A stretch of DNA of 63,441 bases from a virus (taxonomy: Duplodnaviria; Caudoviricetes), in IMG/VR virus record IMGVR_UViG_3300035703_000091, positions 1 to 63,441 of that record; one strand, given 5' to 3'. The notes beneath the pieces are model-generated. The model was not told the origin of the DNA, did no database searches, and saw only the letters and a program-made list of their open reading frames with translations. This document shows, in pieces, positions 204 to 17,394 of the stretch. The translations under genes were made by a program, and so were the position numbers. The number at the start of each line of letters is the position of its first letter. Within the stretch, counting starts at the first letter, position 1.

Positions 204-1715
204 CGGTTCGGCCCCGCCGCACCCTTTCCACCAGCCGCGGACCAGGCCCGCCGCCTTGGGGTTCTCGACGGCCACCCACTCCTTGTGCGCGACCACGCCG
301 CAGAGATAGTCGACGCGCACGCTGGGCGGCGAGCCGAACTTCTCGTGACGCCGGAACGTGCGCTGCGTGACCTTGACCCAGGTCGCCTCCGACTTGGACA
401 GGATCGGCGCCGCGGCGGCCGTCTTCGTGATCTTGTCGCTGACCTGTCGCTCCCACTGATGCCCGCAGTCAGGGCATTCCATGACGGAGGCGTGGACCAC
501 CGAGTAGCACTTCGGGCAGGTCTTCACGGGTGCATCGCCCTTGCCGGAGCCGGGCTTGCGCGGCTTGACCATGTCGATCGGCCCGTGCCGCTTGATGTTC
601 CCGGCGAAGTCCAGCACCAGGCAGTTCGGCTTCGGCCCCGCCGCGATGGCGGCCAGCCGCCCCTCGCGCGTCGAGAGGTCGTGGCCCCGCGCGTAGATCG
701 GCCGCGTGCCGCGCCCGCATATCTGAACGTACAGGCTCGTCGACTCGGTCGGCCGCGCCATCGCCAGCAGGTCCACGCCGGGGGCGTTGAAGCCGGTCGT
801 CAGCACCGAGGCGTTCGTCAGGGCCCGGATGCGGCCGCTGCGGAAGTCTTCGATGATCTGCTTCCGCTCGCCCGCCGGGGTCTCGCCCGTGATCGTCGCT
901 GCGCTGTAGCCGCGCCGCCTGATCTCGTCGGCGAGGTGATGCGCGTGCTCGACGCCCGCGCCGAAGACCAGCCAGGAACGCCGCGCCTGGCCGTAGTGGA
1001 CGATCTCGTCGACGATGGCCGTGGTCAGTTCGTCCTTGTCGACCGCCGCCTGAAGTTCGCCCGCCTTGAAGTCGCCGCCCGTGCGGCCGACGCCCGAGAC
1101 GTCCATCTCGGCGGCCGTGGCCTTGGTGACGAGGGTCGAGAGATAGCCGTCGTCGATCAGCCGGCGGATTCCGACCTCGTAGGCGACCTTCTGGAACAGC
1201 GCGTCGTCGCCCTCGGTCAGGCGGCCGGAGTCGATGCGATAGTCGGTCGCCGTGAAGCCCATCAGGCGCATGTCGGGGTTCATCTCGCGCAGGTCGCGGA
1301 TGAAGGTGAGGTACTGGCCGTTGCCCTTCTTGGGGATCAGGTGCGCCTCGTCGATGAACAGCGCGTCGACCCGGCCCAGCTTCGCGGCCTTGTTGTAGAC
1401 CGACTGGATGCCCGCGAAGAGAATTTGGGCGTGCATCTCGCGCCGCCCCAGACCCGCGGAATAGACGCCGGCAGGCGCCCACTCCCACATGCCGATCAAC
1501 TCCTCGTAGTTCTGCTGCACGAGTTCGGCGACGTGGGTGGCGTTGACGATCCGCAACGGCCCGAACTCGTCCAGCATCCGCCGCATGATCGTGCAGATGA
1601 TGCCGGCCTTGCCGCCGCCGGTCGGGACCACGATCAGGCTGTCGGTCCCTTCGGCGAGGGCGTCGAGTCCAGCCTCGATCGCCTCAGCTTGATAGTCGCG
1701 AGGGGTCCAGGTCAC
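1..1715 (-). CDS. SF2 DEAD/DEAH helicase, RadD/YejH-like with Zn finger; continues across the contig junction to a stop at 63226
   Basis: Hand translation (absent from ORF track because it runs off the edge): GTG start MTWTPRDYQ, Walker A PTGGGK, IDEAH, TAT, LTTGFNAP, QICGRGTR, CPKC..CPDC. Confidence 0.9.
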   Translation of the reverse strand, partial: MTWTPRDYQAEAIEAGLDALAEGTDSLIVVPTGGGKAGIICTIMRRMLDEFGPLRIVNATHVAELVQQNYEELIGMWEWAPAGVYSAGLGRREMHAQILFAGIQSVYNKAAKLGRVDALFIDEAHLIPKKGNGQYLTFIRDLREMNPDMRLMGFTATDYRIDSGRLTEGDDALFQKVAYEVGIRRLIDDGYLSTLVTKATAAEMDVSGVGRTGGDFKAGELQAAVDKDELTTAIVDEIVHYGQARRSWLVFGAGVEHAHHLADEIRRRGYSAATITGETPAGERKQIIEDFRSGRIRALTNASVLTTGFNAPGVDLLAMARPTESTSLYVQICGRGTRPIYARGHDLSTREGRLAAIAAGPKPNCLVLDFAGNIKRHGPIDMVKPRKPGSGKGDAPVKTCPKCYSVVHASVMECPDCGHQWERQVSDKITKTAAAAPILSKSEATWVKVTQRTFRRHEKFGSPPSVRVDYLCGVVAHKEWVAVENPKAAGLVRGWWKGCGGAEPTPTTVDEMLSRVGELRPIDEIRIEADGKYWRVTGRRNGGDAEDVVGQPAAPTSGWRSPAITHYDLND

Positions 1716-7567: not shown

Positions 7568-7837
7568 ATGCAGACTTGGACCTGGGGCGAGAGCACCGAT
7601 TTCCCGCCGTCGATTCGCCGGGACGGCGAAGACGTCTACGACCTGCTGCGCGCCAACCGCTTCGACGAGGCGAAGGACGCCGTCAAGACCTGGCGCGGCG
7701 ACAACCCCATCCGCCTCCTGATCGAGGGCGAGGATTTCCAGACCGCCATTTGCGATCTGGGCTCGATCCTGTTCCCACAGCGCCAGCCGCACGGTTTCGG
7801 CGACGCGATCCGCGCCCTCGAGCGCGACGCTTTCTGA
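7568..7837 (+). CDS. Hypothetical protein
   Basis: First ORF after promoter; phage-like codon usage. Confidence 0.65.
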   Translation: MQTWTWGESTDFPPSIRRDGEDVYDLLRANRFDEAKDAVKTWRGDNPIRLLIEGEDFQTAICDLGSILFPQRQPHGFGDAIRALERDAF

Positions 7838-15201: not shown

Positions 15202-15407
15202 TGTAAAACTGCTGTAAAACTGCTCCGCATACGGAGCGCAGACCACCGCTAAGTCATTGAAATGATGGAGCGGGCGAAGGGAATCGAACCCTCGACATAC
15301 AGCTTGGGAAATCTTACGTCTGGAAGGAATCGCAAGGACTTACGGTGTAAACTTGGCCGATCTAAGCCCTTGGAGACGCTAGGGTCGGCCGCGGCGCTGT
15401 AAAACTG
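15202..15407. promoter_or_regulatory. attP arm region: integrase arm-type repeats and IHF-like site
   Basis: TGTAAAACTGC tandem at 15202-15223, TGTAAACT at 15346, TGTAAAACTG at 15398; TTTCAATGACTTA (minus, 15250-15262) is 1 mismatch from WATCAANNNNTTR. Confidence 0.7.
15266..15310 (-). other. attP core = 3' half of tRNA-Gly(CCC)
   Basis: Minus strand TTCCCAAGCTGTATGTCGAGGGTTCGATTCCCTTCGCCCGCTCCA: anticodon loop, T-arm, acceptor 3' strand and CCA; 5' half absent. Confidence 0.88.
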
Positions 15408-16093
15408 TGCGGCCAGGCCGGGTAGGATATATCCGGCACAAATCGGTTGTTCTTCTTCCGGTTTTCGTCCGCCGTGATGATCCTCAGATTCCAAGGAACG
15501 TGAAGGCCGCAGACCTCTCGACCTAGTAGTGGGATCATGTGGTCGACGTGATGGCGCACGCCGGTTGCCTCGGTCAGGATGCGGGCCTCATCGTAGATCG
15601 CGATGATCTGAGCCCTTTGAATGTCGCTCAGAGGCAGCGTTTGGCGGATGATCGCTTGCTGAGATCGCTTTTTCATGCGGCGCCGAGCCAGTCGCACGGA
15701 GTCGGCGTTTTGGGCTGCATAGTTCCGCTGGTAGGCCCTAGCCTCCTCTCGAGTCCTTTCGCGGTGGTCCATCTTCACCCGCATCCAGGTCTCAGGATTT
15801 TCCGCTCGCCACTTGCGACACCGCGCTCGATCACATGAACGGCATAGCGTCGAGCGCCCGTCCTTCGCCTTGCGATTTACAGTGTAGGCGCTCAAAGGGT
15901 GCTCTGCACGGCACCTCGAGCACATCTTCGTCGGCTCCGGTGCCGGGGGCGGTGGCTGCGACCTTATTTTGGCCCGCCGCGCTCTTTGGTAGTCAGCAAA
16001 GCATCTCTTGCAATACGGCCCCGCCGCGCCGGCTCTGACCGTAAACGCCTCAACCGGCTTCTCTTCGCCGCATCTGCTGCACAGCTTCAGCAT
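15362..16093 (-). CDS. HNH endonuclease with two N-terminal Zn-finger repeats
   Basis: CSRC..CKRC and CSRC..CRSC; HHVDHMIPL...CGLHVPWNL...ENRKKNN. Confidence 0.88.
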   Translation of the reverse strand: MLKLCSRCGEEKPVEAFTVRAGAAGPYCKRCFADYQRARRAKIRSQPPPPAPEPTKMCSRCRAEHPLSAYTVNRKAKDGRSTLCRSCDRARCRKWRAENPETWMRVKMDHRERTREEARAYQRNYAAQNADSVRLARRRMKKRSQQAIIRQTLPLSDIQRAQIIAIYDEARILTEATGVRHHVDHMIPLLGREVCGLHVPWNLRIITADENRKKNNRFVPDISYPAWPHSFTAPRPTLASPRA

Positions 16094-16097
16094 CCAT

Positions 16098-16135
16098 AAA
16101 TAGGAAACGCCCCCGATCCGAAGACCGAGGGCGTT
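16098..16135 (-). terminator. Terminator-like hairpin ending the candidate ncRNA
   Basis: AACGCCCTCGGTC-TTCG-GATCGGGGGCGTT then TCCTATTT (13-bp stem, 2 G-U pairs, imperfect U tract). Confidence 0.7.
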
Positions 16136-16905
16136 GGGTCCGCGTGACCGATCGCGCTATCAGATCGGCTCGCCGCCGAAACGGCGGATTCCGGCCGACC
16201 ATCACTCCCATCCATTTCTACCCCGCCTCCGGGTGGCGGCCGCGCCCAAGGGGCAACCGCCGTCTTTCCGGCTGTCATCGGTTTGCCCTTTCGGGCCGTC
16301 GCCATCGGTCGCTACCCGGCTCTCGACCGGACGAGTCTAGGCTACATGGGGCACCCAACCGAAACCCGCGCCTGGCTCCCCGGCCCGGCTTGCACGGGCG
16401 GCCGGCGTCACCACCGGGCGGGGTTCTCGTGTGGCCCGAAGGCCGAAACTGGCCGGGATCACGCGGGTCCGTCTTCAACGGCCGCCACCCCGACTGCGCT
16501 TGGCCTTCGCGCAGCACCGTCTTTCCGGCTGTCCGCTTGGTGGCGGAATCGGTATCCGCCTTTCGCCGGGAGCCGGCGTCCCATTTTCCGCCCTGGGAAC
16601 GGGGTGGACCCTATAACGCTCGGCCCCTGCTTACGACCGCTGGCCCCCGGATTTTGTGATCTACCGGGCGGCGGTTGGTCGAAACTTACGGGGAGGAAAA
16701 GTCGGGCGTCCCTGACCACCTCCCCTGCGGGCCCTGTCACACCGGGCGTCCCGGCAGCGCAGCAGCCCGAATAGTCCGCAGACATCGCACTCTCCGGGGC
16801 CTGCGAGCCCGTCAATCAGGGCGGAGAAGCCCCGGTGCTTGCGCCGTTCTCTCTCGGCCGTCGACCCAACGACGCGGGGTCTGCGCTTACATTCGCCAGA
16901 ATGTG
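16100..16905 (-). ncRNA. Candidate large structured non-coding RNA (~800 nt), family unassigned
   Basis: Own promoter, terminal UUCG hairpin, continuous hairpins, a 12-bp long-range helix, repeated GACAGCCGGAAAGACGG, no credible CDS. Confidence 0.7.
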
Positions 16906-16911
16906 AATGTG

Positions 16912-16939
16912 ACCATACAGGCGTTTATTCCTGCGTCAA
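16912..16939 (-). promoter_or_regulatory. Promoter of the candidate ncRNA
   Basis: TTGACG-(CAGGAATAAACGCCTG)-TATGGT; same architecture as the promoters at 15177 and 58333. Confidence 0.75.
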
Positions 16940-17082
16940 GTGATTTTTTTCTTAGGAGGGTGTCGCCCCGACCTACACGCGCGAGAGACCAATCAGCACG
17001 GAGAGGATGCGGGCCTGCCGGTGGCCGAGGCGACGCCGAACCATAGCCCGCTCACGCGATCCGCGAGGACGGGTGTGGTGGC

Positions 17083-17394
17083 CTACTCGACTTCGTGCTT
17101 CCAGCCGCGGGCGTGGGCGACTTCGTGGCAGGCGATTTGCGCGAAGACCTCGTCGCGGAAGACACACGGGTCGGGCAGGATCACGAAGCCGTCGACATAG
17201 CAGCCGACGATCATGTTGCTGGCCCGGCCGCCGATCTGTCGGCAGGCGGCGTCGATCAGATGGGCGGGGACCACGATCAGGCCCATGGCGATCGGCGGGC
17301 CGCCCACGAACTCGGCCGGCGGGCGCGTGACGAAGTCGGGCGCCGAGGCGGAGACGGTCATGGCCATCGCGGCCGAGAGAGCCAGCTTCATCAT
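17083..17394 (-). CDS. Small secreted protein with HExxH motif
   Basis: Signal peptide MMKLALSAAMAMTVSASA; CHEVAH; four Cys. Confidence 0.7.
   Translation of the reverse strand: MMKLALSAAMAMTVSASAPDFVTRPPAEFVGGPPIAMGLIVVPAHLIDAACRQIGGRASNMIVGCYVDGFVILPDPCVFRDEVFAQIACHEVAHARGWKHEVE

Follow-up and report, generated by a model that had tools for sequence, protein, structure and literature searches.

The boxB hairpins of lambdoid phages combine a short stem, the sequence of which is fixed for each phage type, with a five-base GNRA-like loop. The motif described here occurs twice in a 63,441-nucleotide stretch of Caudoviricetes DNA (IMG/VR record IMGVR_UViG_3300035703_000091; hereafter the window) and resembles boxB in being a short hairpin with a purine-rich loop carried by early phage transcripts, in E. 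coli-type prophages even at the nutL place, but it differs by an invariant six-base loop, a 5' tail, a stem of free sequence, a distribution over many phyla and the lack of an accompanying boxA in the window. The put RNA of phage HK022, described in the cited part of PMC9378689 as ~70 nt of two stems and a triplex, is similar as a cis-acting phage RNA located past early promoters that may use a universally conserved host machine, whereas our motif spans only ~20 nt, and its sites before final terminators argue against the same role. GOLLD and ROOL are likewise long structured phage non-coding RNAs, and the association of the motif with tRNA clusters recalls them; however, its conserved unit is a 20-nt module and not a large fold, and Rfam searches returned no GOLLD, ROOL or other family in the window or in 33 other motif-bearing loci (15 + 18, with nothing overlying the motif) except tRNA, which was the sole family near the motif arrays of the 18 multi-copy loci. 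A further likeness is to the CsrB and RsmZ sponges, with their repeated GGA hairpins and the single GGA hairpins of target leaders, as the motif is present both as single copies in mRNA leaders (of capsid genes and of an early operon) and as multiple copies in terminator-ended non-coding RNAs (loci L259 and L075 and the window), with a GGA at the stem-loop junction that spans the closing pair and the loop. Its conserved part (13 bases) is nevertheless much longer and extends beyond the CsrA consensus, and the motif is present in Actinomycetota and Bacteroidota, from which CsrA is, to our knowledge, absent.

In the window, both copies belong to a candidate non-coding RNA of ~800 nt on the minus strand (16100-16910), which is placed between tail/repair genes and a nuclease gene and is recognized by flat codon-position GC, by its minimum free energy (MFE) and by the lack of a family match. 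A promoter-like site (TTGACG, 16 nt, TATGGT; 16912-16939, minus strand), known only as a consensus match (9 of 12 positions), would place the start near 16905; two such sites were found in 2.1 kb, compared with 0.3 in shuffles. At the other end, ~125 nt after the second hairpin, an intrinsic-terminator-like hairpin on the same strand (16106-16135; 13 pairs, 8 of them G-C, followed by a T-rich tail) forms the last helix of the predicted fold, the MFE of which (-415.7 kcal/mol; z = -4.4) is lower than that of 20 shuffles (-389.0 +/- 6.0). Third-position GC is 0.57-0.70 in the six ORFs within or overlapping the gap, with flat codon-position GC, compared with 0.86-0.91 in three neighbouring genes and 0.69 in the adjacent endonuclease gene, and four of the ORFs inside the gap had no Pfam match. 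Rfam 15 gave no match in the window at the gathering score, and at E <= 10 there was nothing credible in the window and nothing overlying the hairpins; two weak matches were treated as chance, one to a twister-sister fragment of 19 nt (16383-16401, E = 0.9) and one to c4-a1b1 (E = 2.5). The candidate RNA contains no tRNA, and no homologue of its whole length was identified in the phage collection by distant blastn, in the loci of three relatives of the downstream nuclease or among about 360 motif loci, while three exact-word scans yielded 0, 1 and 0 matches, the single one (L399) sharing only a 21-mer. No relatives were found for the ORF upstream of the RNA, and a look for RNA sequencing runs covering this DNA returned none. 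The downstream gene (15362-16093, minus strand) encodes Zn-ribbon repeats and an endonuclease VII or HNH-type nuclease (phrog_1035 endonuclease VII, 1.2e-28; HNH and Lar-like matches); it is regarded as a neighbour and not claimed as a member of the element, and the Zn-ribbon proteins beside the window RNA and beside L075 showed no convincing relationship.

The preliminary description of this DNA was right about the core of the element, namely an exact 17-nt repeat on the minus strand with a GCCG/CGGY stem and a purine-rich loop. The 17-mer GACAGCCGGAAAGACGG is present exactly at 16276-16260 and 16533-16517, and nowhere else in the window even with up to three mismatches allowed; an exact direct repeat of this length was reached in 1 of 3000 first-order Markov simulations of the 841-nt gap. 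Both copies fold with a GCCG/CGGC or GCCG/CGGU stem and a six-base GAAAGA loop. Copy 2 (16256-16280, minus strand; U-GACA-GCCG-GAAAGA-CGGC-G) is canonical, with a full-length match to our covariance model R1 (19.9 bits, E = 3.6e-5) and a fold of -8.9 kcal/mol (z = -2.1). Copy 1 (16515-16534, minus strand; G-GACA-GCCG-GAAAGA-CGGU) is mildly off-type, with G in place of U ahead of GACA and a G-U closing pair, and has a local match at 16517-16528 (13.0 bits, E = 0.016). These are the only two matches of R1 in 63 kb, and both lie within one promoter-to-terminator non-coding unit.

Two further repeats proposed for the same RNA fared less well. The supposed degenerate third copy, GACGGCCGAGAGAGAACGGC, is indeed present at 16862-16843 on the minus strand, where it has a GACG tail and a possible 4-bp GCCG/CGGC stem, and the window contains no further purine-loop hairpin with a GAC[AG] tail besides it and the two motif copies, but by our tests it does not belong to the motif: its AGAGAGAA loop has eight bases, its stability is no better than that of shuffles (z = -0.27), and the covariance model does not match it at E <= 10. 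The recurrence of GGACGCC is real and local, with GGGACGCC on the minus strand at 16745-16752, 16705-16712 and 16575-16582 (the last ~40 nt upstream of hairpin copy 1), a GACGCC variant at 16409-16404, three GGACGCC observed against 0.30 expected (Poisson P = 0.004) and three of the window's eight GGGACGCC occurrences inside the gap. As for the hairpin tips claimed for it, two copies are palindromes (CGGG-ACG-CCCG, at 16745-16752, and GGG-ACG-CCC), and at least one is a hairpin tip in the MFE fold. A wider role for GGACGCC is unsupported, as it is not conserved with the hairpin elsewhere: GACGCC or GGACGCC occurs within 200 nt upstream of the hairpin in 7 of 51 representative loci, which was judged not to be an enrichment.

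Chance does not account for the two exact repeats, which are genuine RNA hairpins under selection, since hundreds of unrelated loci carry the same module with a stem that has changed in a compensatory way. The motif consists of a single-stranded tail, (c)U-GAC-R, a stem of 4-6 bp with no fixed sequence and a GAAAGA loop closed by G-C, usually followed by A; 13 bases are fixed, and it was found in >350 viral and bacterial loci from many phyla. All scan counts given here refer to the matches listed and are thus lower bounds. A search of phage genomes with the 17-mer, as proposed at the outset, retrieved at least 114 viral contigs, which represent 51 unrelated flank clusters with locus GC from 0.34 to 0.70; beyond the 17-mer, conservation in these was confined to U at -1 (41/51), C at +1 (46/51, with U, giving G-U, in the other 5) and A at +2 (32/51). 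At least 119 bacterial contigs contain the exact 19-mer; their record titles point, among others, to Proteobacteria, Bacteroidota, Clostridia, Actinomycetota, Cyanobacteria, Planctomycetota, Verrucomicrobia, Spirochaetes and candidate phyla. When three stem pairs were left free, 123 matches with 27 distinct stems were listed; 117 of the matches pair (106 with three Watson-Crick pairs, 11 with two and one G-U) and 6 contain a mismatch. Among 114 distinct rows, 98.6% of cells are paired, compared with 78.8% in shuffles and 14-38% in slid controls, and double-sided stem changes number 113 against 29 in shuffles, a value reached by none of 500 shuffles. The excess of G-U pairs on the given strand (11, compared with 2 of the A-C type) points to an RNA transcribed from that strand. 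Among the 781 TGAC[AG]-tailed hairpins listed, 232 have the loop GAAAGA, against 4 for the second most frequent loop. Outside the module, at least 147 flanks are unrelated, positions +3 to +12 and -2 to -14 are unconserved, and a closing helix formed by the flanks is unsupported (duplex energy -6.9 observed, -7.0 in controls). No description of the motif, as GCCGGAAAGACGG or as a GGAAAGAC hairpin, was found among the openly accessible papers listed, and it is apparently undescribed so far.

The motif favours untranslated DNA, as ORFs of at least 120 aa contain 26% of 283 instances but 69% of random positions, and the nearest long ORFs are mostly co-oriented (147/181 downstream, 130/172 upstream) at median distances of 412 nt downstream and 287 nt upstream. 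There is no fixed neighbouring gene, the top Pfam family accounting for 4 of 148 downstream ORFs, and a terminator within 60 nt after the motif is not the rule (5.2%, compared with 1.2% of random positions). There is a strong association with tRNA genes. Among 366 deduplicated instances, a same-strand tRNA gene begins 3-12 nt past the stem in 30 (0.5 expected; 28 flank clusters and 12 isotypes) and a tRNA ends within 150 nt upstream in 27 (5.1 expected), with no opposite-strand tRNA within 150 nt. At least two copies share a strand in 30 loci, in arrays of 2-5. For instance, L075 has five copies at intervals of 183-278 nt along 1.5 kb devoid of ORFs, with a tRNA at the end; L328 has the order tRNA, hairpin, about 210 nt, hairpin, tRNA, with a spacing of 257 nt as in the window; and L259 is built of a 78-nt tandem unit with a terminator at the end. 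A hammerhead-type core was seen 8 nt past the third copy of L075, but an association with hammerheads was rejected, with two independent loci only (L075 and L275) against 0.57 expected. In L088, an SraC/SdsR pair lies kilobases from the motif array. Single hairpins occur in the early-left leader of E. coli-type prophages, a homologous leader being carried by 509 of 5426 E. coli genomes, and inside short terminator-ended RNAs of Xanthomonas FoX1, Vibrio D81 and Vibrio 1.123.O, where the hairpin stands ahead of a terminator that ends an operon and faces convergent genes. Finally, the host tmRNA itself contains 1-3 copies in 10 Actinomycetota loci. These are 10 of 12 tmRNA-bearing loci, all picked by the motif scan itself; in a broader sample, leaving out three unpublished genomes, 1 of 32 tmRNAs had the motif, in the scan's own genome, and the motif was rejected as a general tmRNA part.

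The motif, its conservation, covariation and strand and these contexts are established, and from them we infer a processing or end-protection role and the identity of the reading machine. Our main reading, with a probability of about 40%, makes the motif a portable tag for RNA punctuation or end protection that is linked to maturation of the tRNA type. The hairpin would act in the transcript, on the sense strand and within long untranslated phage stretches, as a tag that a conserved component of cellular RNA processing recognises by its sequence; it would mark and protect RNA ends and split polycistronic non-coding or leader transcripts into stable pieces. The ~800-nt RNA of the window would thus be cut or delimited at its two hairpins into pieces of ~390, 257 and 150 nt. 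The tight spacing before tRNA genes points to an RNase P-type maturation pathway. The preliminary description had seen in the repeats protein-binding or processing sites, and in the RNA a sponge or scaffold or a precursor cut into several small RNAs. As candidate functions, processing or recognition sites and a multivalent or cut RNA both fit three findings taken together: selection on the hairpins, seen in their spread over hundreds of unrelated loci with stems that changed in a compensatory way; the arrays in terminator-ended non-coding RNAs (L259, L075); and the tight tRNA adjacency. Several observations speak against a processing tag. Most copies (~300 of 366) are not beside a tRNA; no cut is needed in FoX1, D81 and Vibrio 1.123.O, because the hairpin already lies inside a short terminator-ended RNA; and a cut within tmRNA, in the 10 Actinomycetota loci, would sever an essential RNA. 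Neither RNase P nor another bacterial RNase is known to act on a hairpin of 4-6 bp with a five-base tail. The thirteen invariant bases point to a very specific reader, and no protein family is consistently encoded beside the motif as a candidate for it.

A bolder and more doubtful proposal is that the hairpin is a universal portable address tag, in which GGAAAGAC, displayed as the best-conserved eight bases of a core cellular RNA beside the fixed UGACR tail, engages one ancient machine in nearly all bacterial phyla, some host tmRNAs using it likewise. The machine might be RNase P, the ribosome or a factor servicing them, and tagged RNAs would be either cut and stabilised at defined points or, when multi-copy as in the window, able to soak the factor up. 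If true, it would constitute a new class of cis-acting RNA signal, used by viruses and with a reach like that of the Shine-Dalgarno sequence.

It is also conceivable, though unlikely, that the motif is a processive anti-termination or anti-Rho signal, an analogue of nut or put whose nascent hairpin modifies RNA polymerase or blocks Rho, so that transcription would cross long untranslated stretches and, past the terminator at 16106-16135, reach the downstream genes. The motif does occur in long untranslated gaps, the order in the window is promoter, hairpins, strong terminator and genes, and in lambdoid prophages of the E. coli type and the Salmonella/Aeromonas type the motif or its conserved leader follows the repressor gene and the leftward early promoter, which is the nutL/putL position; homologous leaders are carried by the E. 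coli genomes counted above. This early-promoter position was found in prophages of the E. coli/Salmonella type and not in the window, and the downstream ORFs are diverse. In HK022, RNA alone suffices for put activity via conserved parts of RNA polymerase, but put RNAs are far longer, at ~70 nt in two stems against 20 nt for the motif (PMC9378689, in the part cited). The L008 leader, the only one compared, showed no similarity to 5 kb of the HK022 early region by BLAST, with only 9-13 nt chance matches. Read-through past the operon-final terminators of FoX1, D81 and Vibrio 1.123.O into convergent genes would be harmful, and anti-termination has no obvious use within tmRNA or 3-12 nt before tRNAs. 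The specific analogy with the lambda/P22 boxB, bound by N, which had been drawn at first, is not supported: the loop is the six-base GAAAGA in all 232 tailed GAAAGA hairpins and all 123 scan matches, no boxA-like sequence was identified in 16100-16940 (two consensus strings, up to two substitutions), and the motif occurs in phyla and in contexts (before tRNAs, before final terminators and in tmRNA) for which an N-type system is not expected.

Just as unlikely is molecular mimicry of a core cellular RNA, by which G-GAAAGA-C presented on a hairpin would bind or decoy the reader of 23S rRNA 2056-2063, multi-copy RNAs serving as sponges. The invariant GGAAAGAC is identical (8/8) to these positions, a universally conserved segment at the peptidyl-transferase loop and macrolide site. 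In the ribosome this segment is not a hairpin loop, and we know of no universal factor that reads it; neither Erm methyltransferases nor TLR13 is universal in bacteria. The surrounding sequence 2054-2068, the Erm/macrolide site and TLR13 ligand 'RNA15', is given in the cited part of PMC12887398 as ACGGAAAGACCCCGU and contains the eight invariant bases of the motif and nine bases of the canonical copy. This 15-mer was present once each in two of five genomes of motif-bearing lineages. In addition, GGAAAGAC agrees with GGAAAGUC of RNase P RNA in 7 of 8 bases, and GAGGAAAGTCCGGGC occurs in the RNase P RNAs of four of the same five genomes. Invariance across phyla is what mimicry of a universal RNA predicts, and terminator-ended arrays of 3-5 copies (L259, L075, L161) are sponge-like. 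However, identity over 8-9 bases to some part of ~4.5 kb of rRNA has an estimated chance of a few percent, and mimicry leaves the UGACR tail and the fixed 3-12 nt distance to tRNA genes unexplained. In the motif the shared bases make up the hairpin loop and the pair that closes it, in surroundings unrelated to those in 23S rRNA or RNase P RNA, and no common reader is known.

Two structural explanations are less probable still. The motif may be a small-ligand aptamer or a self-contained nuclease-resistant fold, with the tail docking on the loop, that stabilises the RNA carrying it, which we consider quite improbable. It is tolerated and conserved in the tmRNA pseudoknot region of 10 loci, a region that serves mainly folding and stability, and its portability into at least 147 unrelated flanks without a flank-made closing helix fits a self-contained fold. 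Thirteen invariant bases, though, are rarely demanded by a fold alone, the motif is very small as an aptamer, and there is no tail-loop covariation to support docking, as both parts are invariant. The second, docking on the tRNA elbow, is very improbable: tail and loop would form a T-loop-type platform that stacks on the elbow and holds or chaperones tRNAs and tRNA-like RNAs, with RNase P, the L1 stalk and T-box leaders as precedents. The strong association with tRNA genes and tRNA-like structures agrees with it, and the elbow as a universal target would explain conservation across phyla. The universal module, as described in the cited part of PMC3664808, consists of two T-loops with invariant UG..A and AG..A; the UGACA tail fits UG..A, but the GAAAGA loop has no AG..A in register. 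Moreover, the order of the elements (tail 5', loop apical) and the 4-6 bp spacer are unlike T-box Stem I, and on geometric grounds a hairpin 3-12 nt from a tRNA 5' end could not reach the elbow of its own tRNA. The remaining explanation, that the repeat is due to chance, is coding sequence (a P-loop-like T-A-G-K-T, as which the 17-mer can be read) or acts at the DNA level, for instance as a promoter or a site bound by protein, is largely refuted: TGACA is like the consensus -35 hexamer and the 78-nt repeats of L259 might in principle be iterons, but no conserved -10 follows the motif (+3 to +12 being unconserved), the TAGKT frame is flanked by stop codons in many loci, ORF statistics place the motif outside long ORFs, the window gap has flat codon-position GC and ORFs without Pfam matches, the stems covary with strand-specific G-U pairs, and the 17-nt repeat is rare in simulations.

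Phage genomes contain many long non-coding gaps and tRNA clusters. A 20-nt signal with 13 fixed bases that ranges from Proteobacteria to candidate phyla, and that has been co-opted by some tmRNAs, implies a single and very conserved reader. Because a homologous leader is present in about a tenth of E. coli genomes, the motif can be tested in a standard laboratory host. Identifying the reader would explain how untranslated phage transcripts are organised, whether tRNA arrays, leaders of early or capsid genes, or orphan non-coding RNAs; it would also offer a simple annotation marker for non-coding RNA genes of phages and might provide a compact, host-independent RNA part for engineering.

The short hairpin that recurs in the window (a UGAC-R tail followed by a stem with a GAAAGA loop closed by G-C) is treated here as an undescribed RNA motif, since no Rfam 15 model matched it in the window or the other motif-bearing loci examined, and neither its sequence nor descriptive terms led to a description in the full-text literature, subscription journals and supplementary files being outside that scope. 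Its general kind, a short recognition hairpin, is known, and its host range is unusually wide. The preliminary description placed exact 17-mer copies at 16533-16517 and 16276-16260 (minus strand), and both are present; when the surrounding gap was simulated 3000 times with a first-order Markov model, a repeat as long arose once, and each copy folds into a hairpin, as had been proposed, its 4-bp G+C stem capped by the loop GAAAGA. The covariance model built from the covarying stem rows recovers exactly these two sites in 63 kb (E = 3.6e-5 and 0.016). The third, degenerate copy claimed at 16862-16843 was left out of the count: its loop is 8 bases, its fold is not better than shuffles and the model misses it at E <= 10. 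The accompanying GGACGCC repeat is real and local to the gap (three copies versus 0.30 expected, P = 0.004; three of the window's eight occurrences of GGGACGCC, counting both strands, fall there), with two copies at hairpin tips as described. Of 51 representative loci elsewhere, only 7 have GACGCC in the 200 nt upstream of the hairpin.

The window is a complete viral record of 63,441 bp, a tailed phage genome with sheath, tape-measure and tail genes on the minus strand. The gap spans ~990 nt between a 103-aa ORF (17083-17394, minus strand), upstream of the candidate RNA, and a Zn-ribbon/endonuclease VII-HNH gene (15362-16093, minus strand) after it, and it holds a promoter-like site (16939-16912) and a strong terminator-like hairpin followed by a T-rich tail (16135-16106), both on the minus strand. 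It is marked as non-coding by several features: third-position GC is 0.57-0.70 and flat over codon positions in ORFs within or overlapping it (versus 0.86-0.91 in three nearby genes, but only 0.69 in the adjacent endonuclease gene), four of these ORFs have no Pfam matches, an 811-nt stretch folds better than 20 shuffles (MFE -415.7 versus -389.0 +/- 6.0 kcal/mol, z = -4.4), no tRNA genes were found, and no Rfam 15 family reached its gathering score anywhere in the window or matched the gap credibly at E <= 10. Positions 29-47 of the twister-sister Rfam model match 16383-16401 (minus strand) perfectly over 19 nt (18.1 bits, E = 0.9, gathering score 34), probably by chance, as only one hairpin of the ribozyme is matched. 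The segment just upstream of the second copy (16272-16371) recurs with 100 identical bases in a 151-nt contig from each of two soil-metagenome runs of one study, which diverge past 16371 and end at 16272; this hints that the segment may be a mosaic, exchangeable sub-unit. An exact 21-mer (16334-16354), and nothing more, is shared with positions 250-270 of L399, a low-complexity metagenome contig very unlike the window in composition. As for the flanking genes, the endonuclease joins two CxxC...CxxC Zn-ribbon repeats, similar to Lar-like restriction alleviation, to an endonuclease VII/HNH domain and has just three, distant relatives in the viral collection (29-35% identity); the 103-aa ORF carries an HExxH motif and a signal-peptide-like start, matches nothing in Pfam or PHROG, and lacks relatives in that collection.

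A search of the 17-mer across viral contigs, with contexts recorded, returned at least 114 loci. Among the matches listed, their flanks form 51 unrelated clusters, the GC of the loci ranging from 0.34 to 0.70, and conservation extends one base 5' (U in 41/51 clusters) and two bases 3' (C in 46/51 or U in 5/51, then A in 32/51). The exact 19-mer occurs in at least 119 bacterial contigs, which by record titles, among the matches listed, include Proteobacteria, Bacteroidota, Clostridia, Actinomycetota, Cyanobacteria, Planctomycetota, Verrucomicrobia, Spirochaetes, Myxococcota and candidate phyla. Second copies within these loci include variants that keep the UGAC(A/G) tail and G-GAAAGA-C and differ in stems that remain complementary. 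Scanning with three stem pairs unconstrained yielded 123 matches with 27 distinct stems: 106 had three Watson-Crick pairs, 11 had two plus G-U, and 6 had a mismatch. Over 114 distinct rows, 98.6% of cells were paired, a share that falls to 78.8% when columns are shuffled and to 14-38% in slid controls, and double-sided changes numbered 113 versus 29 in shuffles, a level attained in 0/500. Given-strand G-U pairs (11) outnumber A-C types (2), and the structure therefore appears to reside in RNA of the given strand. In TGAC[AG]-tailed hairpins the loop is GAAAGA 232 times, the runner-up occurring 4 times; the flanks form no closing helix. A P-loop-like peptide reading of the motif was rejected because stop codons surround it in the sole frame giving that peptide.

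Among loci with GC <= 0.60, ORFs of at least 120 aa, counted in any frame, contain 26% of 283 instances but 69% of random positions; the nearest such ORFs are co-oriented with the motif in 147/181 cases downstream and 130/172 upstream, at median distances of 412 and 287 nt, and the motif thus marks long untranslated, transcribed gaps. No neighbouring gene family is consistent, the commonest Pfam family (capsid) accounting for 4/148 non-redundant downstream ORFs, and a cluster of 21 loci has the motif in the 5' leader of major-capsid-type genes. In an Escherichia whittamii prophage the early-left leader, from the repressor gene to the first early gene, contains three copies along with a tRNA-like fold; homologous leaders occur within a ~950-nt unannotated gap in 509/5426 E. 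coli genomes, and related ones in Salmonella SPN3UB and Aeromonas pAEv1818. The same contents occur in the unannotated ~950-nt gap from repressor to first early-left gene in two E. coli-type prophage contigs, L133 (1300-2040, plus strand) and L242 (3061-4006); GAGGAAAGACC occurs three times in L133, once as a ribosome-binding region. The motif also occurs in short RNAs that end at a terminator: in Xanthomonas FoX1, there downstream of a tRNA, in Vibrio D81, and in Vibrio 1.123.O, where the unit runs cleanly for some 390 nt from TTGACA/GATAAT to its terminator.

Two or more copies on one strand were found in 30 loci. The contig L075 has five, 183-278 nt apart over 1.5 kb free of ORFs, with a tRNA and terminator at the end; the 322-kb viral contig L259 (4122-4515, minus strand) has five in all, with a 78-nt hairpin-containing tandem unit, in an array that leads directly to an intrinsic terminator, some 200 nt beyond which lies a tRNA; and L328 repeats the window's 257-nt copy spacing between tRNAs. 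A hammerhead-type core follows one L075 copy by 8 nt (499-546, plus strand; weak Rfam HH9 match, 21.8 bits, E = 0.021, gathering score 52) and precedes one copy in contig L275 by 56 nt (minus strand), two independent loci versus 0.57 expected. Both are small type-I cores of the same stem III design inside motif-bearing non-coding arrays. A Clostridia MAG contig, L161 (minus strand, around 7647-7700), has three copies back to back, the second and third with weaker 3-bp stems and one with U for the loop-closing G.

The motif is strongly associated with tRNA genes. Among 366 instances, deduplicated on identical +/-25-nt flanks plus flank clustering rather than phylogeny, a same-strand tRNA gene starts 3-12 nt after the stem in 30, where random positions in those loci predict 0.5, and a tRNA ends within 150 nt upstream in 27, where 5.1 would be expected; no tRNA on the opposite strand comes within 150 nt of any instance. 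The 30 represent 28 flank clusters and 12 isotypes, with 22 of the loci viral and 8 bacterial. Near the arrays of 18 multi-copy loci, tRNA is the sole Rfam family, the other matches being an SraC/SdsR pair kilobases off in one contig (L088). The tmRNA gene itself carries one to three hairpins, located past the tag reading frame and in some cases adjoining one another with a spacing of 19 nt, in 10 Actinomycetota MAG loci (bacterial genome contigs L141, L150, L154, L171, L175, L201, L208, L232, L233 and L239). The Rfam tmRNA model confirmed the gene in G001, and tmRNA carriage of the hairpin is lineage-specific, as a wider tmRNA sample, with three unpublished genomes left out, had the motif in 1/32, G001's own.

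Resemblances to core RNAs extend over 8-9 bases and are only suggestive. The invariant GGAAAGAC equals 23S rRNA 2056-2063 (2054-2068 is given as ACGGAAAGACCCCGU in PMC12887398; this 15-mer was found in 2/5 test genomes) and is one base off GGAAAGTC of RNase P RNA (4/5 test genomes). As the tRNA-elbow docking module is presented in PMC3664808, the motif tail fits its UG..A half but the loop does not fit its AG..A half. The reported P22 small RNA 'P22G' (PMC13397905, Table) has a hairpin, GAUG-GAAAGA-CAUC, that lacks the UGACR tail, and this resemblance may be chance.

Tentatively, with a probability of about 0.4, the hairpin may be a punctuation or end-protection signal tied to tRNA-type maturation, because it precedes tRNA 5' ends at a tight spacing irrespective of isotype, and because its arrays part RNA segments of 180-280 nt, occasionally with a ribozyme, and it lies in leaders between genes. 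That it serves as an anti-termination signal seems unlikely: its position in prophages is nutL-like, but copies also sit inside tmRNA and just before operon-final terminators. Mimicry or a sponge would account for the invariance and the arrays, but it leaves the tail and the tRNA spacing unexplained and is improbable. A boxB/N reading, after the boxB comparison drawn in the preliminary description, fails on loop form, the lack of a boxA in the gap and distribution. If the hairpin is indeed a punctuation signal, the window RNA would be split at its two copies into pieces of about 390, 257 and 150 nt.
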